Part shown: positions 3,462 to 55,836 of the stretch, piece by piece
How the letters are laid out: each line of letters opens with the position of its first letter
Position numbering within the stretch: position 1 is the first letter of the stretch
Assembly: GCA_900314725.1 (NCBI GenBank)
Contig: OMWJ01000010.1
Span: 63,156-127,155 of the forward strand
DNA from: an uncultured Bacteroidales bacterium
GTDB taxonomy: Bacteria > Bacteroidota > Bacteroidia > Bacteroidales > P3
Direction: 5' to 3'
DNA: 64,000 nt
The notes under the pieces: model-generated
The model's input: only the letters and a program-made list of their open reading frames with translations
What the model was told of the DNA's origin: nothing
Databases searched by the model: none
Translations under genes and position numbers: made by a program

Positions 3462-3551
3462 TGTTTTCCTTTCTCACAACAAGAAAATCCTGTGTAAGTT
3501 TTCATCCAAAGAAACACAGGATTTTCTAAAAATATTTAAGTCCCTTAAAAT

Positions 3552-5102
3552 CTATCTTTTCATTTCTCTTGAACCCATTCTATCCATTGCACAACGGAAA
3601 CCTATCCATTCTGTCTTTTGATCTTGAGCCAAGAATCTTTTTTCACCTGGTGATAAGTATAAGGCTTTATCTTTCCAAGAGCCACCCTTTACAACTCTAA
3701 CCTTATCGTTAATCATGGAAGTTTTGCCATATTCATACATACCATTAGTTTCTGATTCTCTCTTTAAAACATCTTCCTCTTCTTCCTCAGCAGTTGTTGT
3801 TACCTCTTCTTCCTCTTCACCTTCTTCTCCTATAGAAGATTTCCAATCATTACCTGCTACTATTTGAGAAGCTAAATCTCCGTCTAAGTAGTTAATATTG
3901 TCTGACTGACGATAGTTTCTTCTATTAACATTGTCTTCAACTGTTACCTCTCTATATGTTATTCTACCTAAAGAGTCTTTCTCTGCTATCATACCATCAG
4001 AGTCTAACACTTTTGTAATATAAACATTTCCTCTATATGGATTAATATCACCTGCATCTTCTGGAGTATTTGGACGGTAAACATCCATAACCCACTCAGC
4101 AACATTACCAGCCATATTATATAGACCATAGTCATTAGGGAAATAGTAATCAACAGGAGCTGTATATTCCCAATGGTCGTTCAATGCACTTGCAACACCC
4201 ATAGCATCACCTCTTGAACGCTTAAAGTTTGCAAGCATTTCACCATAGTATTTCTTTTGGTCTGTTCGAACAACATGACCATTCCAAGGGTATATTCTTC
4301 TTTCTAAGATACGACCTTCTTTTGTTGTGTTTCCAATAAGACCCAACGCAGCATATTCCCATTCTGCCTCAGTCGGAAGCCTAAACTTAGGATATAGTAT
4401 TCCGTCAGACATATTTACTTTTCTCACCCCTTCAGAATTTGGATTAAGGTCAGCAAGTTCTTTCTTAACATAGCCTTCATACTGTCCAGCAAGATAAGCA
4501 TCTGTTGTGAATACGTTATCACCTTGTTGATCTGGATCCATCTCCAATATACCAGCATCAATAAGAGCTTTTTCATTCAAACGATCTGTTCTCCAATCAC
4601 AATAATTGTTAGCTTGAATCCAACTAACTCCAACAACTGGATAATCAGCCCAAGATGGATAACGGAAATAATATTCCACCATAGGTTCATTATAAGTCAA
4701 TTTACTTCTCCATACTAAAGTATCTGGCAAATTACTTTGATAATATTCTGGATAATCAGTATAGACTCTTTGTATCCAGTATAAGAACTCTCTATAAGCT
4801 AAATTAGTTATCTCACATTCATCCATATAGAAAGAAGAAACTGTTACCTTACGAGGATTGTTATCCCATTCATATTTTACATTATCTGTAGTTCTTCCCA
4901 TAATAAATGCACCGCCTTCAATAAAGACTGTTCCTGGAGGCGTTTGTTGTTCCATATTCTTAGCAGACTCAAAGCCACCCCATTTTGAATCGTCATAATT
5001 CCAACCTGTTGTAGCAGACTTTTTCTTACCTGAACAAGCAAACAACAAAGTAGCAACTGCTACTATCATCACTAATTTACCAACAACTGATACTGTTTTC
5101 AT
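3552..5102 (-). CDS. gldJ: Gliding motility/T9SS lipoprotein GldJ (SUMF1/FGE-sulfatase-fold, GldJ/GldK family)
   Basis: Lipobox LLFACSG, followed by TTGWNYDDSKWGGF. FGE-fold motifs are RLPTEAEWEYAA, YNMAGNVAEWV, KGGSWKD and GFRCA. The start is trimmed to MKTVSVV (ATG at 5102); the ORF extends to 5147. Confidence 0.85.
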   Translation of the reverse strand: MKTVSVVGKLVMIVAVATLLFACSGKKKSATTGWNYDDSKWGGFESAKNMEQQTPPGTVFIEGGAFIMGRTTDNVKYEWDNNPRKVTVSSFYMDECEITNLAYREFLYWIQRVYTDYPEYYQSNLPDTLVWRSKLTYNEPMVEYYFRYPSWADYPVVGVSWIQANNYCDWRTDRLNEKALIDAGILEMDPDQQGDNVFTTDAYLAGQYEGYVKKELADLNPNSEGVRKVNMSDGILYPKFRLPTEAEWEYAALGLIGNTTKEGRILERRIYPWNGHVVRTDQKKYYGEMLANFKRSRGDAMGVASALNDHWEYTAPVDYYFPNDYGLYNMAGNVAEWVMDVYRPNTPEDAGDINPYRGNVYITKVLDSDGMIAEKDSLGRITYREVTVEDNVNRRNYRQSDNINYLDGDLASQIVAGNDWKSSIGEEGEEEEEVTTTAEEEEEDVLKRESETNGMYEYGKTSMINDKVRVVKGGSWKDKALYLSPGEKRFLAQDQKTEWIGFRCAMDRMGSREMKR

Positions 5103-5171
5103 ATTATTTTTTACTTTTTTACTTTTCCTTATACGTTTAAATTTCACTTTTGTTTCAAAATTTATAAAAAT

Positions 5172-6161
5172 TTAGAAGGAAGGACATTTTACGTCTCTAA
5201 CTTTCTTTTTCTTTTCTGGGCAAGGTAACTTAGCACTTAAAGAAACCTCATGTGCTCCTCCTGAAACATTAGAAAGAGAAGAAACTGTTATATCATAACT
5301 ATATCCTATCTTGTAATCTCCCCATTGTAAGCCGAACAACAAAACAATAGCATCTGCATTTGAGAATGACATTGATTGTCTAAACCACGCTCCAAAAACA
5401 AAAGGAGACCAATCTAAATACATACCATAGTTTAATTCATTAAATTCTCCTTGATGTTGATATATAATATTCGGAGAAATAATTGGCTGCCCAAAGAATG
5501 CATTGGTTCTTCTTGCATCTCTTCTAAGATTAAATCTCATTCCTGCATTAGCAGTTACTTTTATAGGTAATCTATTATATGATATAAAACCATCTTTAGG
5601 ACGAGTAAGATTAACAGCGGCAACTCCGGCATACCATGTTTCTCCATATACCAGAGCACCTGCTCCAAAATCTACATACGTTTTTGAGGTATTATCGGGT
5701 CTTGTTGCCATTGTGGAAGGATAGATAACGCCATATCTTGTATCTATCATATCTCCAAAAACTAATTTATCCCAATCTAAACTATTGTTGGTTAAATTGG
5801 CTTGAGCAGCAAGATTTAATGCAATATCCTGAGCTAGTTGTAAATGAAGAGCATAAGACAAAGCAACAGTATTCACTCTGTAAAAATCACTTTGCTTATC
5901 ACTCATTACATAAAGACCAATACCACCAGAAATAAAGTCAAAATATTGGTCATAACTTGCAGAAAAAGTTTTGAAAGCTCCTAATGAAGGCCATTGGTCT
6001 CTATAAGATAAAGAAAGTCTTGGACAAACTGCGGAACCAGCAAAAGCAGGGTTTGTGTAAATAGGATTAGCAAAAAACTGAGAAAAATGAGGATCTTGAG
6101 CTTTTAATCCCGTAACGGCAAAAGCACAAACCAGAACTAAACAAACTATACTTCTTTTCAT
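5172..6161 (-). CDS. PorP/SprF family type IX secretion system membrane protein
   Basis: A signal peptide is followed by the family signature QDPHFSQFFANPIYTNPAFAG. The size fits a beta-barrel. The start is trimmed to MKRSIV (6161); the ORF extends to 6200. Confidence 0.85.
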   Translation of the reverse strand: MKRSIVCLVLVCAFAVTGLKAQDPHFSQFFANPIYTNPAFAGSAVCPRLSLSYRDQWPSLGAFKTFSASYDQYFDFISGGIGLYVMSDKQSDFYRVNTVALSYALHLQLAQDIALNLAAQANLTNNSLDWDKLVFGDMIDTRYGVIYPSTMATRPDNTSKTYVDFGAGALVYGETWYAGVAAVNLTRPKDGFISYNRLPIKVTANAGMRFNLRRDARRTNAFFGQPIISPNIIYQHQGEFNELNYGMYLDWSPFVFGAWFRQSMSFSNADAIVLLFGLQWGDYKIGYSYDITVSSLSNVSGGAHEVSLSAKLPCPEKKKKVRDVKCPSF

Positions 6162-6431
6162 ATAACGTATATTATTTCTATATTCAACTACAATTTTCAA
6201 ACGGCAATATTACAAAAAAATATGCATATATTATTTTTTTTTATTATTTTTTTGCTATTTATTTTCATAAACCACTGTTTATTAGAATCTTCAATCTAAC
6301 CCATAAATATTCAATCGTTATATTTATACTCAAAAACAGATGAAAAAGTTACAGTATTTATCCATTTATTTGATAGTGTTGCAGATTTCATTAATAACTC
6401 TCTATTAATGAAAATGAATTAAATCTAATAA

Positions 6432-6914
6432 TTATTCCTTAGATAAAAGACAAACACTATAGGCAGACACTCCCTCTTTCCTCCCTTCAAAACCAAGATG
6501 TTCTGTTGTTGTTGCTTTTACACTTACATCTTCTATATCAACATCAAGCACTTGTGCAAGCACTTCTTTCATTTTGGGAATATAGCTACTAATCTTGGGA
6601 GACTGCAGACTTATAGTGGAATCTATATTCTCTATCTTATAACCTTTTGCCTTTATTTTAAACAAAGTATCCTTAAGCAACAATTTACTATCTATACCTT
6701 TGTATTTATCATCAGTATCTGGATATTGAAAACCTATATCTCTAAGATTTGCTGCACCTAAAAGAGCGTCTATAATAGCATGTATCAAAACATCAGCATC
6801 AGAATGTCCCACGACACCAAGCGGAGAATTTTCTATCACAACTCCACCAAGCATTAGTTTTTTACCTTCTTGGAGCTTATGAACATCATAACCAAATCCA
6901 ACTCTCATTTTCAT
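6432..6914 (-). CDS. ispF: 2-C-methyl-D-erythritol 2,4-cyclodiphosphate synthase
   Basis: 160 aa with RVGFGYDVHKL and GHSDADVLIHAIIDALLGA, the zinc/substrate motifs of IspF. Confidence 0.95.
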   Translation of the reverse strand: MKMRVGFGYDVHKLQEGKKLMLGGVVIENSPLGVVGHSDADVLIHAIIDALLGAANLRDIGFQYPDTDDKYKGIDSKLLLKDTLFKIKAKGYKIENIDSTISLQSPKISSYIPKMKEVLAQVLDVDIEDVSVKATTTEHLGFEGRKEGVSAYSVCLLSKE

Positions 6915-6925
6915 GACAAAATGGT

Positions 6926-8107
6926 TTACATATCAAATGAAAGGGACACCCTAAGAGTATTCTTCAAAGGATTATTTGTCTGAGAAGTTGGCACTAAATA
7001 AGAAATATCTATCCCTAAGGAATTATATTTAATAGCCAAACCTAAAGTAAGATATTGCCTATCTCCTTTCTTTTTATTTTCGTAGAAATATCCTGCACGT
7101 GCTGCTATCATATTGTTATACCAATACTCTATACCTGCAGAAATATTTATCTCCTGTAATTCTTCTTTAAAACCATTAGGAGCATCATAAAAAGATTGTA
7201 TTGCACCTTGTAGAACTCCTACGTGATCATCCTTACCTTCATAAATATTTCCTGCGGTATCTCTAACAGGAGGAGTCGGAACAAGAAGTTTGTTCAAATC
7301 TAACATAAAAGATAATCTATTAAATTGGTCCATAGAATAAGAATACCTTCCTCCTATTCTAAGGTTAGCAGGCAAAAAACTTGATTCTAAGTTATCAGAA
7401 TAAGATATTTTGTTCCCTAAATTAGATATTTGCAAACCCAAAGCATATTGTGCTGGCTTATCCAATGCAAGATCTTTTTGATAATATAATCCGATATCTG
7501 CTGCAACTGCAGATGCTGCATGGGTACTATTTCCCTGAACACTTTGTCCTTGAGTTAAATCTGAACGAATATATCTTCCTGTTACCGCAGCAGCTAAATT
7601 TTCTGTAAGTTTTAGAGAATATGAAACATCTAATGCAAACTCATTAGGATTATAATCTCCCATAGAAACACCTTCATCGTTTGTAAAATTAATAGATCCC
7701 AAGGAAAAATAAGTCAAAGATGCTCCTATTGCGCTTATATCATTAAGTTTATAGTAGCCTGCTAAATATGTTAAATCTATATCTCCTGCTATATCTCTCA
7801 ACCAAGGAGAATAAGTAAGAGAAGCTGCAAACTTCTTTTCTGCAAAAGGTAACTTAGCAGCATTCCAATGGTTTGAATTAGCATCAGGAGTAGAGGCTGC
7901 ACCTAAATCTCCTAAAGCTCCTGCTCTTGCATCTGGTGCTATTAACAACAATGGTACACCAGTAGAAATAAGTCGTGCATCATCTTCTACTTGTCTTCGC
8001 AATATTGTGCCTTGTATATTATCATTATCTATTACTCCACTTTGTGCATACACAAAGTTTGAAAATAACATCAAAGTTGATATGAGTGTAAAAGTTATTC
8101 TTTTCAT
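6926..8107 (-). CDS. porV: Type IX secretion system outer-membrane channel protein PorV (LptO)
   Basis: 393 aa with a signal peptide and a LLIAPDARAGALGDLGAA motif. The size is FadL-like barrel. It lies directly downstream of porU. Confidence 0.85.
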   Translation of the reverse strand: MKRITFTLISTLMLFSNFVYAQSGVIDNDNIQGTILRRQVEDDARLISTGVPLLLIAPDARAGALGDLGAASTPDANSNHWNAAKLPFAEKKFAASLTYSPWLRDIAGDIDLTYLAGYYKLNDISAIGASLTYFSLGSINFTNDEGVSMGDYNPNEFALDVSYSLKLTENLAAAVTGRYIRSDLTQGQSVQGNSTHAASAVAADIGLYYQKDLALDKPAQYALGLQISNLGNKISYSDNLESSFLPANLRIGGRYSYSMDQFNRLSFMLDLNKLLVPTPPVRDTAGNIYEGKDDHVGVLQGAIQSFYDAPNGFKEELQEINISAGIEYWYNNMIAARAGYFYENKKKGDRQYLTLGLAIKYNSLGIDISYLVPTSQTNNPLKNTLRVSLSFDM

Positions 8108-8169
8108 TTCTATTTATCTTTTTTGTTGTACGTAAGAACGCTTGTAATTTGTTTTTATTGTAAGTATTT

Positions 8170-11100
8170 TTATTTTATAACTAACATTTTATTCATTTTT
8201 CTTATCTCATCTCCATTATTAGTAACTATTTCCACAACATAATAATAGATACCATTACCTATCATTCCTCCTCCATCAACTCTTCCATCCCAATGAATAG
8301 GAGTAAGATTATAGGTGTTTATATATTCATCAGCATTTATAGTTTTGAGTATTCTACCTTGGGCATTAAATATTTTTATTGTAGCAGACTTAACGTCATT
8401 AGCTTGATTAAACTTAAGAATTATATTAGTACCATCACTGAATGGATTAGGATAATTATAAGTTTCATATTCTTCTTTACCTGAATTCACAACCTTAAAA
8501 TGAATAGTTGCATCCGAAGAATAATTATAAATATTCCATACCTTAATAGAAAGAGTATGTTCTCCTTCTTCCAAAGAAGAAAATGGGTAAATAATATATC
8601 CTTTAGTTACATCTTGATCATCATAAACATAATAGTCATTAAGTATAAACGTATTTGCGGCATTATCCAGACGAGCGACAATGTCATGTCCAAGTCCTGC
8701 TCCTGCTATATTAATAGGTATACTATCCTTTATTACCGCAAAAAGAGTAGGATTCTCATCTGTTATCCCATAGTCAACAAAATTACTGTCATTTATATAC
8801 AAATCAACTATCGGTCTTGTTTCTATTGTATCTACATTTTCGTTAATTCCTCCAAGAACAAAATCATTGGTGTATCCTGCTGCATCAACACTTCCATCTT
8901 GTGCATAAAAACTAAGTTTTGCTCGTCCATAATTATAAGCAATATCTTTAGGAATTATGAAATTATATTCAAACTCTCCATTACTAACTTGTGCAAAACC
9001 TTTATGGAGCAAGTTCGTCTGCAATTCAAAAGTAAGCGTTCTGCCTATACCGGCATTATCTAAAGTTTGATAAGTTGTTTTTTTGTCAAACAGATATATC
9101 TTAACTTTTCCATTAAAGTCTTGTATCTTGTTCCCATTAAAATCAACCACTTCTGCCCTTATATACATCTTTGAAAGAGCATTAGATGTATCTATAGTCG
9201 TAAATCCTGAAATACTATCATCATAGAAAGAATTATTTATTTGTGTTGTTTTAATATTATATTTAGGTAAAGAAATTCTAAGTGCAGGATCTCCTAAAAG
9301 CGTTATACTCCTTTCTGCAGTCTGTAAATTAGTAGCATTTTTTGCATTCATCATCACTTCTCCGAAAGTGTAAGGTGTGCCATCTGTTTTTCGCATTAAA
9401 GCATACTTATGTAATGCTTGATTAATGGCGTTATTAGAGGCAATTTTTCGTGCTGCTGCTATAAGTGCTATAGCTGCTCCATTCTCCGAGAGAACAGCAT
9501 ACTCACCTGCAGCTTGTTTATCTACAAGGTCAAAACGTGCGAACTCACAAGTAGAAGTTATCATCAAAGGTAGTTTATTATAATTAGTCCATGAAGTTAT
9601 ATCAGACATTGTTATTAATCTTTCTCCACTCAAATGATCTGGAGAACCATGTCCAAGGTAATTAAACAACAAACAACCTTTGTTTATCCTATCATTAATA
9701 GCTTTACTTGCATCAGGATAAGTAGCTCCTGCTGAAGAGGTATATTCCTTGTAAGCATCTTGATAAACTTTTTGAATGTTTATATAGGGCTGTGTTTGGT
9801 CTATTTGTGTATAAATATGCTCAGCATTATCTATAAAATACATCTCGCTCAAATCGTCAGCATCATCAGAAGAAAGCATAACAAAATTTCGCCAATCTCC
9901 ATCTTCATTTTCCAACAAATCTTGTTTTGACATATATCTTTTAGCCTTATCAACTAATATCTCTGCTTCTTTTATTTCATTTACAGGAAATCTTCCCACA
10001 CCTATCATAAGAGTGTCATAAGTCCTATTCTCAGAATAATCCGACAAACAAGCAAGAACATCATCTGAAGTAAAAACATAGCCCACATTTCTGTATTCGC
10101 TTACTGATTGATAAGTAGGAATATAGTTATTGTTATAGCCAAGAATATTTTTATTATCAAAAGTTCCATCACCAAACAAAAGAACATTCTTTGGATTTTT
10201 ACCCTCTGAAACGTACTTATTATACATCATTCTAAGAAATTCTCTTATCGCTAAAAAATCTTTTTGACCTGAAGAAAACTCATTATAAACTTGCTCTACA
10301 TCTACAACCTCAACACTTATTCCATCATTTTGTCTATGTAAAGTTGCTAATTCATCAGCACTACTAAGAAATTTAGTATTACTTACTATAATCAAATCTG
10401 CTGGTTGCATAGCATGAAGATTTTGATTTTCCACTTGATTAACAAAAATTGGAGTAGCAAAGTTACTACCATTTACAACTACAATAGTTCTTATAGTATC
10501 GTTAGGAATAATGCAAAAGATATTATTATTTTCCTGTATTTTGTTACACATATAAGCATTATTAATATCTGTAACATCCCATATCATTGTATTAACATTC
10601 GGAGCATTGCTTATTTGATATCTTATCGAATTAGCAAGAGAAGGATTGTTGATAGAGAAAAATCTTAGATAACTATTATTAAGGATAAGGTTTTGTTTGT
10701 AATTTACAAGTATATAATTCAAATATGCTTTATCTGAAAAGTTTGCAGAGTTATACTGAATATTTATTGTACTGTTTGGAACAGAGATATTTTGCTGATA
10801 TTTCTTATTAACTTTTAGAGCTACTATATCTGAACTTGAAGTAGCTGAAGGGTACATATTTTCTAATTGCGTATTATTTAGTTTCACTACAAAACTAACA
10901 TTAGAAGCACTTGCTGTTGCTAAATCTAATTCTATTTGCGCAGGATAATCAGGAGATATATTTAAAAGATTTATTGGCACTGATAAAGTATTACTTGAAG
11001 GGGTCATTCTTTCTCCTACCCATGTTTTGCCTGCATTTAGCAAGTTTGTAAGTTCTCTCTTATGAAAAGAGTAATAAGGAGTTGTGGATATAGTCGTATC

Positions 11101-50190: not shown

Positions 50191-50263
<73 letters not shown>

Positions 50264-50683: not shown

Positions 50684-52114
50684 TCAGAAAGTCAGAAATT
50701 GATTACACTTGACTTTCAAACCGCTGTCATAGTTAAACAATATATCAGAGTTAGGATATATTTTCTTTAATTCATTATAGATACTCAGTCTTCTTGCCTT
50801 ATCTATGTCGGAGTTATAATAGATAAACAACAACTTGTCATTCTTATGACTTGAGACAAAACACTCTCTACAAAAATAATCATCAAAAACTATAACACCC
50901 TCATAGTCTTTTAGTTCTATAGATACTTCATTATTTTTCTTATCGGTAAAAATCATTTTGGTTTGACTAAAGTTCAATATATCTGAAAAGTATAAATCTA
51001 CGGAATAGACAATCTTTTCTTGTGCGTCATCCAATTTCGTGGTATAATCAACAAACATTCCTTGTGAAAACAGAGGTATATTCATTGTTGGGATTAAAGC
51101 TGTAAAAGGAGAATCTGTCCCGTATTTCGGAAAAGAAAGTATAACTTGCTTGTCGTGTGTCGCCATATTAAGTTTTATAATATCGCAAGTATCTACACCT
51201 CTTCTTTGAGTAAAGATAATAAGACTTGTATTGTCAATGAAACTATGCTTGAAATTGGAATAATAATCTAATATGTTCAACTTATCCAATAGCATTATTA
51301 TACTTTTTGAATATTCAGGCGAAATTATCTTTTGATTTACAGATACATTTGTATCCAAAAGATGTTGTGTTTTTTTATAATCCTCATTGAGTTGGAATGC
51401 TATACTATCAACTAATTCCAAATCATAATCGTACAAATAAACTTTTGGCTCTATTGTATTGATAAAAGAAATATAGTTTTCATTACTTGAAAATGCATTA
51501 TATATGTCATAATAATGAAGCAATATAGAATTTCCTGCATAAATATTTTTTTGTTTAAGGATTTTATGATTTTGTATATCATACAATGAAATAATATATG
51601 ACTTCTCTTTATTAAAAACCTGACTTGACAATACAAGTTTGCCATTTTTGTAGCCTACAATAGTAGATAAACGTGTCTCTGGTTTTAGTTCTTTGAAATC
51701 ATAACAACTGTTGAATTCAAAATGTTTGTTTCTCTTGATATAAGTAATCAATCCTTTACCAAAAGAAATAAATAAGGTGTCATTAATGTAATAAACAGAA
51801 TTAGCTAATATCACGGGATAATAATAGGACGTATCATTATTCTCAGTAATATATGAAGACAATATATTATTTATACTATCTAATACTATAGTGTCTTCTT
51901 CTATAGTCGCAAGATAAATATAAGGAGTTTGCTCATATTCCTCCAGTAATAAAAGCCTTTCATCTGTGTTGGTGTTTATTTTTGCAATAGAACTATTGTC
52001 TGTTTCTCTAAAAAATAAATCAAAACTCTGCTTTTTCTCCTGTGCAACCGCATTATAAACAAGCAAAAGTATGCATACCAAAAAGCATGCATACTTTATG
52101 ATTAATTTATTCAT
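50684..52114 (-). CDS. Hypothetical secreted protein (476 aa), no recognised family; degenerate CxxC thioredoxin-like C-terminus
   Basis: Signal peptide MNKLIIKYACFLVCILLLVYNAVAQ. The body is Y/N/I/S-rich and beta-rich in appearance. The C-terminus has GVIVFDDYFCRECF...LLFIYYNSD. Confidence 0.6.
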   Translation of the reverse strand: MNKLIIKYACFLVCILLLVYNAVAQEKKQSFDLFFRETDNSSIAKINTNTDERLLLLEEYEQTPYIYLATIEEDTIVLDSINNILSSYITENNDTSYYYPVILANSVYYINDTLFISFGKGLITYIKRNKHFEFNSCYDFKELKPETRLSTIVGYKNGKLVLSSQVFNKEKSYIISLYDIQNHKILKQKNIYAGNSILLHYYDIYNAFSSNENYISFINTIEPKVYLYDYDLELVDSIAFQLNEDYKKTQHLLDTNVSVNQKIISPEYSKSIIMLLDKLNILDYYSNFKHSFIDNTSLIIFTQRRGVDTCDIIKLNMATHDKQVILSFPKYGTDSPFTALIPTMNIPLFSQGMFVDYTTKLDDAQEKIVYSVDLYFSDILNFSQTKMIFTDKKNNEVSIELKDYEGVIVFDDYFCRECFVSSHKNDKLLFIYYNSDIDKARRLSIYNELKKIYPNSDILFNYDSGLKVKCNQFLTF

Positions 52115-52176
52115 GGTAATATGTTTTCAAATTCAGTACTACGCAAATCCATTTCATAAACGCCATTTTAGAGGAA

Positions 52177-52560
52177 TCAATCTTTATCATTTCTCTCATA
52201 CCATCTATTTTTATAATCAGAATACAAGACAACATAATACTTAGTACTCGTATCATCTATTTTATTACAAGTGTATAAACCTATGTATTTAAATTGTTCT
52301 ACATTTGCTTTATGGCATACTTCATCAATAGCTCTTTCCATACTAAGACTATCGTATGGATAAAAGAGTACATTGATATCTCGTTGATTTCTCTTGGATA
52401 TTGTATCAAGAAATACTTTTGTTCCATTGTCAGACTTAGAAATAAATATTTCCCTATCTACATGTACAACATACGTACCTCTGACAAGCATTTGCTTGTC
52501 ATTGCTACATGACCATAACAATAAAAATGATGAGACGATAATTATTTTAACTATTTTCAT
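52177..52560 (-). CDS. Hypothetical lipoprotein (127 aa)
   Basis: Signal peptide with lipobox LLWSC. No recognisable domain. It lies 62 nt upstream of the 476-aa gene on the same strand. Confidence 0.55.
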   Translation of the reverse strand: MKIVKIIIVSSFLLLWSCSNDKQMLVRGTYVVHVDREIFISKSDNGTKVFLDTISKRNQRDINVLFYPYDSLSMERAIDEVCHKANVEQFKYIGLYTCNKIDDTSTKYYVVLYSDYKNRWYERNDKD

Positions 52561-52594
52561 AAAATTTAGTTTTTACGTGATACACATTCTACAC

Positions 52595-52602
52595 TACATT
52601 TG
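52595..52602 (+). promoter_or_regulatory. Candidate -7 box on the strand opposite the genes, 53 nt before element copy 1
   Basis: TACATTTG on the + strand. No + strand CDS follows. Confidence 0.3.
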
Positions 52603-52654
52603 CCAACAAGCTTACTATCTTTATTCTGTCTTTTACAATTTATTAATTATTCTC

Positions 52655-52820
52655 TCCTACTCATTTAAAGGCTTTTCGGAATCCTCCTTTTTATTTAAAC
52701 GTTATTTAATATGATTTATTTTCATTGCACAATGATAAGTGCGATTATGCGAACATTCAATGTATGTTTGACGCTATTACAATTGTTTTTCTTCACCGCT
52801 GTTCATATTTCCTCCTTTCG
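52655..52820. repeat. Conserved ~165-bp non-coding intergenic element, copy 1
   Basis: Aligns end to end with 53362-53525. Contains hairpin A (52724-52745), hairpin B (52749-52774) and two CCTCCTTT boxes (52683-52690, 52811-52818). Confidence 0.8.
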
Positions 52821-52850
52821 TGTTCTAAAAAATATTATATATATAAGTAC

Positions 52851-52895
52851 GCAAAAACGACAAAAGTTCTACACCGTTTTTGTAACTATTTTTTC
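52851..52895 (+). terminator. Weak candidate hairpin/T-run downstream (+ strand) of element copy 1
   Basis: cAAAAACG-15 nt-CGTTTTTg, then aactaTTTTTT. The stem is A/U-rich, so this is weak. Confidence 0.25.
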
Positions 52896-52907
52896 ATATT
52901 CTTAATC

Positions 52908-53342
52908 TTATATATTTATATTAAATGTTTCTATGAGCAATCCTTGTCTATATATTTCAACAGTATAATTACCTTGAGGTATATTTTTTATTATATAACT
53001 ATAAGTCCTTCCGCATATACAGTTCGCTTCATACGTACTTGGATTAATAGGAATCTCTTCTACATGCAACGTATCCGCAGTAATAGATACTTCTATATTG
53101 ATGCTTTCTATACTGCAATTAAAACTACCACTATTATTTATGGAGAGACTATTATCCTGTACTACATAGCCAAATTCAGATGTTGATTTATTATAGCAAC
53201 TACTAAAATAGGTTATTTTTCCAACTATACCTTTTTTAGAATCTTTTTCTTTGTCATCACTGCAACTAACGGTTGCTAAACCTAAATTTACTACTGCAAA
53301 GAATAGAAAAAGTATCTTTGCGAGATTTTCTAATTTCTTCAT
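52908..53342 (-). CDS. Hypothetical Cys-rich lipoprotein (144 aa)
   Basis: Signal peptide with lipobox ATVSC and five further Cys residues. No similarity to the 127-aa neighbour is visible. Confidence 0.55.
   Translation of the reverse strand: MKKLENLAKILFLFFAVVNLGLATVSCSDDKEKDSKKGIVGKITYFSSCYNKSTSEFGYVVQDNSLSINNSGSFNCSIESINIEVSITADTLHVEEIPINPSTYEANCICGRTYSYIIKNIPQGNYTVEIYRQGLLIETFNINI
53313..53320 (+). promoter_or_regulatory. Candidate -7 box on the strand opposite the genes, 42 nt before element copy 2 (inside the 5' end of the 144-aa CDS, antisense)
   Basis: TATCTTTG on the + strand. No + strand CDS follows. Confidence 0.3.
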
Positions 53343-53361
53343 TTTTTATGTTTTTTATTTT

Positions 53362-53525
53362 TCCTACTCTATTAAAGGCTTTTCGGAAACCTCCTTTTTA
53401 TTTAAACGTTATTTAATATGATTTATTTTCATCGCACGATGATAAGTGCGATTATGCGAAACATTCACTGGATGTTTGACGCTATTGCAATAATTTTTAA
53501 CTGCCATTCATATTTCCTCCTTTCG
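53362..53525. repeat. Conserved ~165-bp non-coding intergenic element, copy 2
   Basis: Aligns with copy 1. Contains hairpin A (53431-53452), hairpin B (53456-53482) and CCTCCTTT boxes (53390-53397, 53516-53523). Confidence 0.8.
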
Positions 53526-53554
53526 CATTATCAAAAAAAATGCTTTATGAATTT

Positions 53555-53612
53555 ATTTGCATTGCACGATAATAAGTGCAATTATGCGAAACGTCCATTC
53601 AGGAGACACTGC
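53555..53612. repeat. Partial third copy of the element core (hairpin A plus degenerate hairpin B)
   Basis: tttatttgcattgcacgataataagtgcaattatgcgaaacgtccattcagg aligns with tttattttcatcgcacgatgataagtgcgattatgcgaaacattcactgg of copy 2. Confidence 0.7.
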
Positions 53613-53707
53613 AAAAAGGGTAAAAACTTGCAGTTAAAAATCAATTATTTTTTCGAAAAGTTTTTAATCTATTGATTTATACAGAGAAAAATTCTTATTT
53701 ATTTTAA

Positions 53708-53761
53708 ATAAACAAGAAACTTATTCTTTGATAACTTTCTTTGTTTATGAACTTCTTTTTT
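53708..53761 (+). terminator. Candidate hairpin/T-run downstream (+ strand) of element copies 2-3
   Basis: Imperfect ~19-bp inverted repeat ataaacaagaaacttattc / gataactttctttgtttat, then gaacttcTTTTTT. Confidence 0.3.
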
Positions 53762-53868
53762 AATAAACATTCTTTAATAGATATTCTTGTACATTCGTGC
53801 GAAGCACGTTTAACCTGCCATGCTCGCCAAGTATCAATTCAAATGTTTTAGTTTTTGGTTCTTGTTTT

Positions 53869-53895
53869 GCGAAAGTCCATTCAGGACTTTGACGC
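53869..53895. repeat. Isolated hairpin-B-type module (fourth copy)
   Basis: gcgaaagtcc-attca-ggactttgacgc has the same GCG...GA-CGC frame as hairpin B, with a different but still complementary inner stem. Confidence 0.6.
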
Positions 53896-53924
53896 TTATT
53901 TTCTTCTAAAGAAAATGAACTAAT

Positions 53925-53967
53925 AAAAATAAAAAAAGTGTCTTGCAGAAAGACTACAAGACACTTT
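53925..53967 (-). terminator. Terminator after the C69 dipeptidase gene
   Basis: 11-bp perfect stem AAAGTGTCTTG / CAAGACACTTT, followed on the minus strand by TTTTTTTaTTTTT. Confidence 0.8.
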
Positions 53968-53988
53968 GTATATTATGTTTGATTAGAA

Positions 53989-55755
53989 TTATTCTCCTAA
54001 GTCTTTGATTACATCACCGTGGTCCTTTACTATCATTCTGTACCAATCAGCAGGATAAGCAGGTTGCATTGGAAATACTGCATCACCTTTTCTGAATCCT
54101 GTTTCTTCAAACTTGCCATCTTTTTCTTTCTTGATGTTGCCATCAATATATTTTACTAAAAGATAGTTGTATAAGTTTGACCATTCGTTGAATGTTTGTT
54201 CTGCTTTAGCAAGAGAGAATTTTGTTAGCTCATTTCTCATCTGGCTTTCAGTCATATTCTTTATTCTTGCATCCAATTTATTCACCTCTTCAACAAAGGA
54301 ATTCTCCAAACGAGATTGAACCTTTTGCAAATCTACGATCATATCACTCCAACGAGTATAGACAAAGTTAGATACCTGATTGAATTTCCAGAAAGCAGAT
54401 GTCGGAGAATATTCTGTCATAGAACCATTACCTTCTTTGAAGTTAATAGGTGTTTCATTTATGGAAGAATACATTGGAACATAGACAGTAGTGTAAGTGT
54501 CATCTACGCCAAACCAAAGAATACCTTTTGCTTTTGCAGGCATCCAACTGCGAGTCTGTGCAACAAAAGAGAAGCCTGTCTGTTGAGTTGAAGTAGCTCT
54601 TTCGTGAATGTATTTTTGTCCATCAACTTCCCAATTCATAGGTCTCCATCTGTAAGGACATTTGAAAGGACCTGCTCCCAAATCCTTAGACATATCCATA
54701 GGAGTGCCTTGATAGTAGTCGCGCATTAGGGCCATAGCTTCATTAACAGAAATCTTATGATCTGGTTTTATCCATAGTGGCATACGGTTCTTTAAGTTCT
54801 TACCCATAGCGTATGATTCATATTGTTTCATATTGCCATTGACTCTGTTGAACATAGCATATACTCTTGCTTCACATCCCCTTGCACCAGAGAAAGTCAA
54901 AGGAGCGTATGTGTCAGAGAAAGAAAAGTCTTCATCTTTACCGTTGTACCAGCCTTTTATTCTTGCGAACTCTGCAACATCTTCTGCATAGACTGTCTCT
55001 ACTTCAGGGCGGAAGATTTCTTTAAGATTTTTAGAAGAGATACTTACAAAAGATCCTTTCTTTTGCCAAGGGAAAGTAGTGATACGTGCCTGATTAGCAT
55101 GACCACAAACATATCCGTCAGGTATTCTTCTTGCAACCCACACAGCACCTTTAGTCCATTTTTTGTTGGCTTTTATGGATTTTACATTACCTTTCTTATC
55201 TTTTATTGTATCCATTACAGGTTTTCCTTTGCCGATAAGTTCCATAATCCAAACTTCATCACCGTCAGCAATAGAAAAACTCTCTCCTTCTGAAGCATAT
55301 CCGTATGTTGCCATAAATTCTGCGATGGTTTTTATAGCTTCTCTGGCTGTTTTTGCTCTTTGAAGAGTAAGATAGATAAGAGAGCCATAGTCAATACCAT
55401 TGCCTAAATCCCAGCATTCTTCTCTACCTCCGTATGTTGTTTCACCTATGGTAAGTCCCCATTCGTTCATATTTCCAACAGTAGTATAGGTTTGTGCTAC
55501 CTGCGGAATTTTGATAAGGGGTTTGCCGGTGTCCCATTCTATTACCTGAATCATAGTTCCTGCTGCATATTGTGCTGCACGAGTGTAGTACAATTCTCCA
55601 TAAAGGGTATGAGAATCAGCAGCGTATGTAATCATTGTTGAACCGTCTTTTGTTGCACCCTTAGTAAAAAGAAAATTAGTGCAAGCCTTGGTTTGAACTG
55701 TTGCTAACATAGTAGTAGCAACAAAAAGGATGATAAAAATGTTTCTTTTCTTCAT
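53989..55755 (-). CDS. C69 family dipeptidase
   Basis: 588 aa. A signal peptide is followed by the N-terminal nucleophile context KACTNFLFTKGATKDGS. Length and composition fit peptidase C69. Confidence 0.85.
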   Translation of the reverse strand: MKKRNIFIILFVATTMLATVQTKACTNFLFTKGATKDGSTMITYAADSHTLYGELYYTRAAQYAAGTMIQVIEWDTGKPLIKIPQVAQTYTTVGNMNEWGLTIGETTYGGREECWDLGNGIDYGSLIYLTLQRAKTAREAIKTIAEFMATYGYASEGESFSIADGDEVWIMELIGKGKPVMDTIKDKKGNVKSIKANKKWTKGAVWVARRIPDGYVCGHANQARITTFPWQKKGSFVSISSKNLKEIFRPEVETVYAEDVAEFARIKGWYNGKDEDFSFSDTYAPLTFSGARGCEARVYAMFNRVNGNMKQYESYAMGKNLKNRMPLWIKPDHKISVNEAMALMRDYYQGTPMDMSKDLGAGPFKCPYRWRPMNWEVDGQKYIHERATSTQQTGFSFVAQTRSWMPAKAKGILWFGVDDTYTTVYVPMYSSINETPINFKEGNGSMTEYSPTSAFWKFNQVSNFVYTRWSDMIVDLQKVQSRLENSFVEEVNKLDARIKNMTESQMRNELTKFSLAKAEQTFNEWSNLYNYLLVKYIDGNIKKEKDGKFEETGFRKGDAVFPMQPAYPADWYRMIVKDHGDVIKDLGE

Positions 55756-55836
55756 ATACTATATTTTTAATAATTAATTCAAAAAAATGAACAAGTATTT
55801 AAATAACGTTTATATATGTTTATTATTTTACACAAG

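Follow-up and report, generated by a model that had tools for sequence, protein, structure and literature searches.

Hairpins beside a DUF805b motif in repeated Bacteroidales 5′ leaders: possible accessory RNA stem-loops

Two adjacent hairpins, B and A, are repeated in front of small lipoprotein genes in a stretch of 64,000 nucleotides (the window; G+C content 32.9%) from an uncultured Bacteroidales bacterium. We tentatively propose that they serve as accessory RNA stem-loops in a 5′ leader of DUF805b type, encoded on the minus strand, a reading that appears to us quite possible, though somewhat short of probable. In the mRNA, the stem-loops would be arms of a multi-stem domain in which the start region of a mini-ORF is kept in a helix, and/or they may protect the transcript; the target of selection would be the pairing and not the sequence. 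The comparisons show the strand and position of the hairpins, the repeated architecture, pairing that persists through matched changes and a surplus of G.U pairs on the minus strand, whereas the start of transcription, a helix at the mini-ORF start (P1) and any effect on regulation are inferred. The hairpins are not a new kind of element, and the surrounding leader is DUF805b by the Rfam threshold.

Hairpins A and B in the 64-kb window

The coordinates and sequences of both hairpins, taken from an earlier inspection of the DNA without database searches (hereafter, the sequence-only reading), all proved exact when checked; they are listed with the other features of the region in Table 1. Hairpin A conforms to ATYGCAC-N8-GTGCRAT and occurs three times, with no other occurrence in the 64-kb window. 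When up to two mismatches were allowed, the pattern retrieved the three copies and one weak two-mismatch match from the window, compared with 0.41 expected. Copies 1 and 2 belong to the two leaders, and copy 3 sits ~35–60 nt upstream of the GAAAGGAGG box of leader copy 2. Adjoining copy 3 is a half-deleted hairpin B, missed in the sequence-only reading, whose 3′ arm (GGACGTTT-CGC) is intact and whose 5′ arm is partly deleted.

Hairpin B is found in three types: AAACAT-ccagtga-ATGTTT (type I), AAACGTCC-tgaat-GGACGTTT (type II) and AAAGTCC-tgaat-GGACTTT (type III). Type II, which is intact in three related loci (L159, L211 and L239) and is represented in the window by the 3′ half at copy 3, forms a bridge between the other two: type I is separated from type II by one double change (A-U to G-C) and a rewritten loop, and type II from type III, compared by eye, by the loss of one whole C-G pair. 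The inner stem and loop had been described as completely different between copies; the types do differ, but with this intermediate linking types I and III the description was overstated. The closing helix and the bulge, described as the same throughout, are retained across the types, except that in L169 a GGG/CCC helix replaces GCG-tc/CGC and the bulge is lost. The sequence TGAATG is shared by nearly all variants. The interior of hairpin B diverges much faster than its flanks, and the arms remain complementary.

On both strands, the module reaches its minimum free energy with hairpins B and A formed, the plus-strand fold being slightly more stable for copies 1 and 2. The fold z-scores range from −2.3 to −4.4, with the exception of copy 1 (−0.4 to −1.0). 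Since perfect 7-bp hairpins number 86 in the window, compared with ~58 in shuffled sequences, a single 7-bp hairpin is unremarkable, and the case depends on the comparison of copies.

Table 1. Features of the leader region, with positions in the window
Feature	Position	Strand	Basis or score
127-aa lipoprotein gene, downstream of leader copy 1	52177..52560	minus	
DUF805b RNA motif (RF02914), copy 1	52654..52689	minus	40.2 bits
Hairpin A, leader copy 1: ATCGCAC-ttatcatt-GTGCAAT, C.A mismatch on transcribed strand	52724..52745	minus	sequence, alignment
Hairpin B type I, leader copy 1, one T fewer in 3′ arm	52749..52774	minus	sequence, fold, covariance model R1
Mini-ORF MNSGEEKQL*, leader copy 1; stop codon 2 nt before hairpin B	52777..52806	minus	
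GAAAGGAGG box, leader copy 1	52811..52819	minus	
144-aa lipoprotein gene, served by leader copy 2	52908..53342	minus	
DUF805b RNA motif (RF02914), copy 2	53361..53396	minus	45.5 bits
UCAUAUU, predicted pairing with AAUAUGA near mini-ORF start	53415..53421	minus	RNAalifold
Hairpin A, leader copy 2: ATCGCAC-ttatcatc-GTGCGAT, variable pair C-G	53431..53452	minus	sequence, fold
Hairpin B type I, leader copy 2: GCG-tc-AAACAT-ccagtga-ATGTTT-CGC	53456..53482	minus	sequence, minimum-free-energy fold, covariance model R1 90.9 bits
Mini-ORF MNGS*, leader copy 2	53497..53511	minus	
GAAAGGAGG box, extended Shine-Dalgarno-like, leader copy 2	53516..53524	minus	
Hairpin A, copy 3 (upstream type, U-A)	53561..53582	minus	sequence
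Hairpin B type II remnant, adjoining hairpin A copy 3	53586..53609	minus	sequence, covariance model R1 45.6 bits
Hairpin B type III, alone, no hairpin A; directly 3′ of C69 peptidase terminator	53869..53895	minus	sequence, fold z −4.35
Small hairpin H0, TTTTCTT-tag-AAGAAAA, preceding the type III slot	53899..53915	minus	
C69 peptidase intrinsic terminator	53935..53967	minus	
C69 peptidase gene	53989-55755	minus	

Organization of the leader

All neighboring genes, among them one for a 476-aa protein, are on the minus strand. The two DUF805b matches, both above the gathering score of 35.6 bits, lie on the same strand between hairpin A, which they directly follow, and the lipoprotein genes, ~20 nt (copy 2) and ~94 nt (copy 1) before the ATG; this motif, along with the minus-strand location of the element, had been missed in the sequence-only reading. 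No Rfam family covered A or B in the interval 52100-54100 at E-values up to 10. Both hairpins lie outside the DUF805b model (35 nt; 35–70 nt downstream of A), and neither is present in 65 viral DUF805b loci or in 5 bacterial leader variants. They therefore represent a lineage-specific form of a candidate cis-regulatory leader that is already known. DUF805b (clan CL00115), a candidate cis-regulatory RNA of Bacteroidota, is found here in the same strand and just 5′ of the start codon, and it is also present in related loci and in gut viral contigs; A and B, in contrast to what the family definition covers, are lineage-specific accessory parts. A search of the literature on DUF805/DUF805b yielded nothing useful.

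The leader is ~190 nt long and repeated, with the B-A module as an optional insert of ~57 nt. From its 5′ end, it consists of an AT-rich promoter-like stretch, the GAAAGGAGG box, a mini-ORF of 4–9 codons, a small hairpin (P2), B, A, a UCAUAUU/AT-rich linker, DUF805b, an A-rich tract and the ATG. The same architecture is present in at least 12 distinct copies from related contigs.

RNAalifold analysis of seven full leaders predicted a multi-stem domain with B and A in the consensus. In the prediction, AAUAUGA at the start of the mini-ORF pairs with UCAUAUU just 3′ of A, and this helix (P1) encloses P2, B and A, with the DUF805b region next. Zero covariation was seen for P1 and P2 in the seven leaders, and for this reason P1 is a helix that we infer. 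UCAUAUU was found only in leaders that bear the module; leaders without B-A are also without it. The leader has no terminator of its own, the sole terminator-like site in the interval 52100-54100 being that of the C69 peptidase gene, and copy 1 does not share the alternative pairing of GCGAAAGGA with the 3′ arm of B that can form in copy 2. A classical attenuator was rejected because the leader has no terminator.

The GAAAGGAGG box comprises 9 nt and is located 4 nt before the AUG of a four-codon mini-ORF (MNSS*, MNSG*, MNGS* or MDSS*); leaders with both elements were found in the window and in L154, L155, L159, L168, L169, L211 and L287. In leader copy 1, the mini-ORF has nine codons because TAA became GAA. 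Four of the 11 AAGGAGG sites in the window fall within the two leaders. Ribosomes of Bacteroidia usually disregard Shine-Dalgarno sequences, and rpsU is the only gene for which extended ones are known (PMC9976891). The rpsU leader of Bacteroidia, which serves bS21 autoregulation (PMC9976891, PMC7797042), is similar to the present one in having an extended Shine-Dalgarno sequence like GAAAGGAGG at the canonical distance to an AUG, but here the box precedes a mini-ORF of 4–9 codons, and surface-protein genes lie downstream. One could imagine that the leader senses the state of the translation machinery, the GAAAGGAGG-driven mini-ORF being coupled by the B/A domain and DUF805b to the surface-protein cassettes. 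The trigger may be ribosomes with a free anti-Shine-Dalgarno tail, and phages would carry a cut-down version as a small RNA. We regard this scheme as speculative and, on balance, improbable.

Two minor observations concern the DNA around leader copy 2. The T-run at 53533-53540, located between copy 3 and the GAAAGGAGG box of copy 2 in a promoter-like region, is a homopolymer that varies in length: it has eight T in the window and L159 and seven in L211, L239, L165 and L169. An 18-nt inverted repeat matching at 17 of 18 positions (TATTTAAACGTTATTTAA) ties the leader linker (53399-53416 and 52692-52709) to a site immediately before the C69 peptidase gene (55799-55816); by a rough estimate, about two such matches are expected by chance in this AT-rich 7 kb.

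Pairing and covariation across copies

From related MAGs and metagenomes, we assembled a set of 18 distinct copies with both hairpins (B-A) and 8 that have B alone (B-only); the 18 are closely related and come from one narrow lineage. Covariation was counted on the 18-copy alignment (A1) with the two-hairpin structure; pairs in the B-only copies were counted by eye from the sequences, because MAFFT misaligned the 3′ arm of type III. For A and B together, standard pairs are formed in 97.5% of the cells of the 18 copies, whereas only 17–50% of cells pair when the 3′ partners are slid by 1–3 columns as a control. Three of the 16 pairs have changed on both sides (shuffle mean 0.9; three were reached in 4 of 500 shuffles), and the covariation score of 0.110, compared with 0.073 for the control, was reached in none of 500 shuffles.

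The three double changes are separate events, though among 18 closely related copies: C-G to U-A at pair 3 of A, in the sub-lineage located upstream of a promoter; A-U in type I against G-C in type II at inner pair 5 of B; and C-G to G-C at closing pair 2 of B in L169 (GGG...CCC, TC bulge lost). Compensatory change between copies, as proposed in the sequence-only reading, thus has its support in three of 16 pairs, two of them in B, and is not significant for hairpin A alone. The variable pair of A on the minus strand is C-G in six copies, U.G in six, U-A in four and C.A in two; with all four combinations present and no association between the two positions (Fisher p = 0.64, 18 copies), the C-to-T change matched by G-to-A that had been claimed for this hairpin does not hold up as covariation. 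Since U-A is restricted to one sub-lineage, that of the copies upstream of a promoter, it represents one event.

Disruptive variants are about as common as single changes compatible with pairing. They include C.A in window copy 1 and L165, A.G in L155, C.U in L165, A.A at L194 12941, single-base deletions in window copy 1, L230 and L179, and window copy 3 with half of B deleted.

Copy 1 had been taken as a hint that the plus strand might be the functional one. The larger set reverses the hint: six copies have a minus-strand U.G, equivalent to C.A on the plus strand, and 272 of 279 cells are paired on the minus strand (9 wobble) compared with 267 of 279 on the plus strand (4 wobble). A plus-strand function, either as antisense RNA or through ORFs of 64 and 85 aa that start with MIYFH..., is therefore hard to reconcile with the pairing across all copies or with the placement of DUF805b and all genes on the minus strand, and we consider it very improbable, even though copy 1 has a G.U pair on the plus strand, the ORFs overlap both copies and the folds of copies 1 and 2 are slightly more stable there. 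The ORFs themselves were rejected, since a 1-nt indel between the copies shifts the plus-strand frame.

The sequence-only reading saw in the hairpins selection on a fold as opposed to a protein-binding sequence. Three double-sided changes, several G.U changes and the variable spacing of B speak for this conclusion; in particular, the outer GCG-to-CGC distance in B varies between types, which argues against a fixed site for a dimeric protein. On the other side, the evidence from hairpin A is non-significant, mismatched and truncated copies persist, and the module is absent from intact leaders; hairpin A is equally compatible with a palindromic operator, and matched changes are possible without selection. 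The support for selection on a fold is suggestive but thin.

Distribution and genomic context

A genome scan with a pattern that left the stem of A free retrieved two true loci, each in a MAG of Bacteroidales, one of which is ruminal; each GTDB genome with a match, two in all, has a single B-A stretch. The metagenome scan retrieved five true loci, and further look-ups added one near-duplicate copy. The B-A module is rare and limited to one rumen/gut Bacteroidales lineage. Hairpin B was not found elsewhere: in ~250 kb of lineage DNA, it is limited to intergenic mosaics and is not high-copy.

Gene sets depend on the strain at two chromosomal sites, one reaching from the C69 peptidase gene to tRNA/QueE and the other from the BatA/VWA operon to an M23 peptidase gene. 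Both sites contain small lipoprotein genes and genes with Por_Secre_tail domains, and the same leader stands before most of these cassettes of lipoproteins and type IX secretion (T9SS) cargo. The 144-aa protein has one close relative, and about a dozen other small proteins share its signal peptide only. Leaders that are intact but have no B-A module precede similar genes at L154 9944, L159 726, L168 5944, L211 5901 and L287 6875. It follows that the module is dispensable in the leader.

Cassette arrays were observed in the window (50684-53342) and at L154 7800-10745, L155 5001-6217, L168/L169/L171 about 3500-10100 and L174 3108-6692. At the QueE-side border of the array, the window and L154 have a tRNA gene (50191-50263, plus strand, in the window); tRNA genes are frequent landmarks of variable islands. 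Cassette proteins end in ...KLIKQ or ...KVIKE. At 53721-53744 (minus strand), the window retains the final seven codons and the stop codon (TKKVIKE*) of Por_Secre_tail cassette genes known from other strains, a relic of a cassette that was deleted or recombined. We also considered the 270-nt stretch from the type III hairpin to copy 3 as a decayed secretion-domain gene and rejected it, as only TKKVIKE* and the type III peptide match. In L171, a gene for a 169-aa lipoprotein lies directly before that of a 1171-aa S8 peptidase, a pair resembling the potempin/KLIKK-peptidase pairs of Tannerella forsythia (PMC4404884, PMC9890683).

Hairpin B is portable. The slot after the C69 peptidase terminator that is occupied by type III in the window is filled in other strains by an unrelated hairpin, AAAAGAA-gcg-TTCTTTT. 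Hairpin B also stands alone after the gldN terminator, upstream of a perfect TAACTTTG -7 box, at a distance of ~55 nt (L194 12941) or ~95 nt (L292 5557). In L171 (9778-9804), type III is in frame within the 1171-aa S8 peptidase gene, in the linker before the secretion domain, where SVKVLNGLSQN replaces the QQGETKELATD of L172 (3870-3902). L171 and L172 are 100% identical over 3260 nt up to the 5′ edge of this hairpin and 85–95% identical thereafter, which marks a recombination breakpoint; in L174 and L179, homology begins exactly at the 5′ edge of B. In every context found, the orientation of B is the direction of the downstream gene. Several of these contexts speak against a role in the leader: B occurs alone after a terminator, upstream of a promoter and inside a protease gene, and the presumed promoter lies downstream of copy 3 and its relatives.

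The small hairpin H0 and the slot follow gene ends in the window, L154 (9540-9570), L171 (10120-10150) and L168 (3735-3765). The alternative slot hairpin is flanked by GAACC repeats.

Alternative explanations

Palindromes are hot spots of deletion, and templated repair, template switching or gene conversion can yield matched changes without selection. The main rival to RNA stem-loops is a neutral one, in which complementarity is kept by hairpin-templated repair, template-switch mutation or gene conversion. Hairpins B and A would then be recombination-prone DNA palindromes, by-products of mosaic intergenic DNA that mark the end-points of deletion and recombination; we find this conceivable but rather doubtful. 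Such an origin would agree with the breakpoints at hairpin edges (L171/L172; L174, L179), with a presence/absence polymorphism that spans the module, with the loss of half of B at copy 3 and with the exchange of type III for an unrelated hairpin. Moreover, the changes cluster inside B, the arms of types II and III are perfectly complementary, as if from a single template switch, and disruptive variants are found roughly as often as pairing-compatible ones. It accounts less well for three independent double-sided changes on different branches, for the greater number of G.U pairs on the transcribed strand, for an orientation that is always that of the downstream gene, and for the TC bulge and closing helix retained across types.

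Proteins acting on DNA provide two further explanations. Hairpin A could be the palindromic operator of a dimeric DNA-binding regulator that coordinates the cassette genes, which we judge unlikely; such a regulator would act from ~+85 in the leader copies and from ~−55 in the upstream copies. The half-sites do vary independently, in all four combinations and without association, and A is found both within the leader and upstream of the presumed promoter. The 8-bp spacer, constant in 18 of 18 copies, is compatible with an operator but not diagnostic; since all copies are recent relatives, constant spacing of A is barely informative. Set against this, no regulator gene was found nearby in the local gene tables, A was never seen without B, and B changes its arm length and spacing. 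Still less probable, in our estimate, is a role of B, with or without A, in recombination, as a signal that folds in single-stranded DNA similarly to attC or REP and through which a dedicated recombinase or transposase moves or swaps the cassettes. The loci are strain-variable arrays of small cassettes, and B is a discrete unit of 27–33 nt in at least five contexts, one of them in frame in a gene, with a bulged hairpin and conserved flanking bases. The likeness to integron attC sites extends to the importance of structure over sequence and to the extrahelical bases, comparable to the TC bulge; however, here there are two separate hairpins of 27–29 and 22 nt and not one of 57–141 nt, there is no R′/R″ core and no GTTRRRY at the 3′ boundary, and the cassettes bring their own promoter-like leaders. 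REP/BIME elements are likewise short imperfect intergenic palindromes with pairing kept between copies, some of them behind terminators, but the copies here are few, limited to mosaic loci and mostly in 5′ leaders. None of the locus tables shows an integrase or a transposase within ~10 kb: no integrase family, and thus no integron integrase (IntI), is among the Pfam matches within ~10 kb in L154, L155, L168, L171 and L174, and no RAYT-type (IS200/IS605-like) transposase is present in the local gene tables of the examined loci. Homologous recombination over the ~200–600 bp of repeated leader suffices to explain the movement of cassettes. An inverton reading was rejected together with the attC and REP readings. 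Finally, the in-frame type III hairpin (SVKVLNGLSQ) in the S8 peptidase linker recalls the Rickettsia palindromic elements, but hairpin B has 27–33 nt, and this is a single case at a recombination breakpoint, not a dispersed family.

If the stem-loops work in RNA, as we prefer to think, they would extend DUF805b, itself a candidate regulatory RNA without known function, in this lineage, and leaders with and without them would provide a natural comparison in front of variable surface-protein genes of Bacteroidales from gut and rumen. If instead they are neutral, they show in a small and clean case how matched changes in hairpins can come about without selection, and they are a caution for covariation-based structure calls in repeated DNA. 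The hairpin finding itself is modest; of greater interest are the mini-ORF with its Shine-Dalgarno-like sequence and the surrounding cassette arrays.

Viral relatives of the leader

The search for the module in phages and plasmids was negative. Searched with a pattern of 15 bases and with one of 20 bases anchored on the flanks of hairpin A, the viral contigs yielded chance or unrelated matches only, and hairpin B of types II and III was not found in them. BLAST of the leader against plasmids gave no match; BLAST of the viral element against phages gave one record, without annotation, and PHROGs was uninformative for the viral neighbors.

In the gut virome contigs (L001-L065; IMG/VR, mostly 55–108 kb), DUF805b is preceded ~55 nt upstream by AGAAAGGAGGTGA, which we take to be a 13-nt complement of the 3′ tail of 16S rRNA. 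It is usually followed by ATGAAATAG (MK*), for example, in L006 at 6470-6680. The L006 unit is located between convergent genes and ends in a terminator-like hairpin; as it has no downstream ORF in this position, it may be a small RNA and not a leader.
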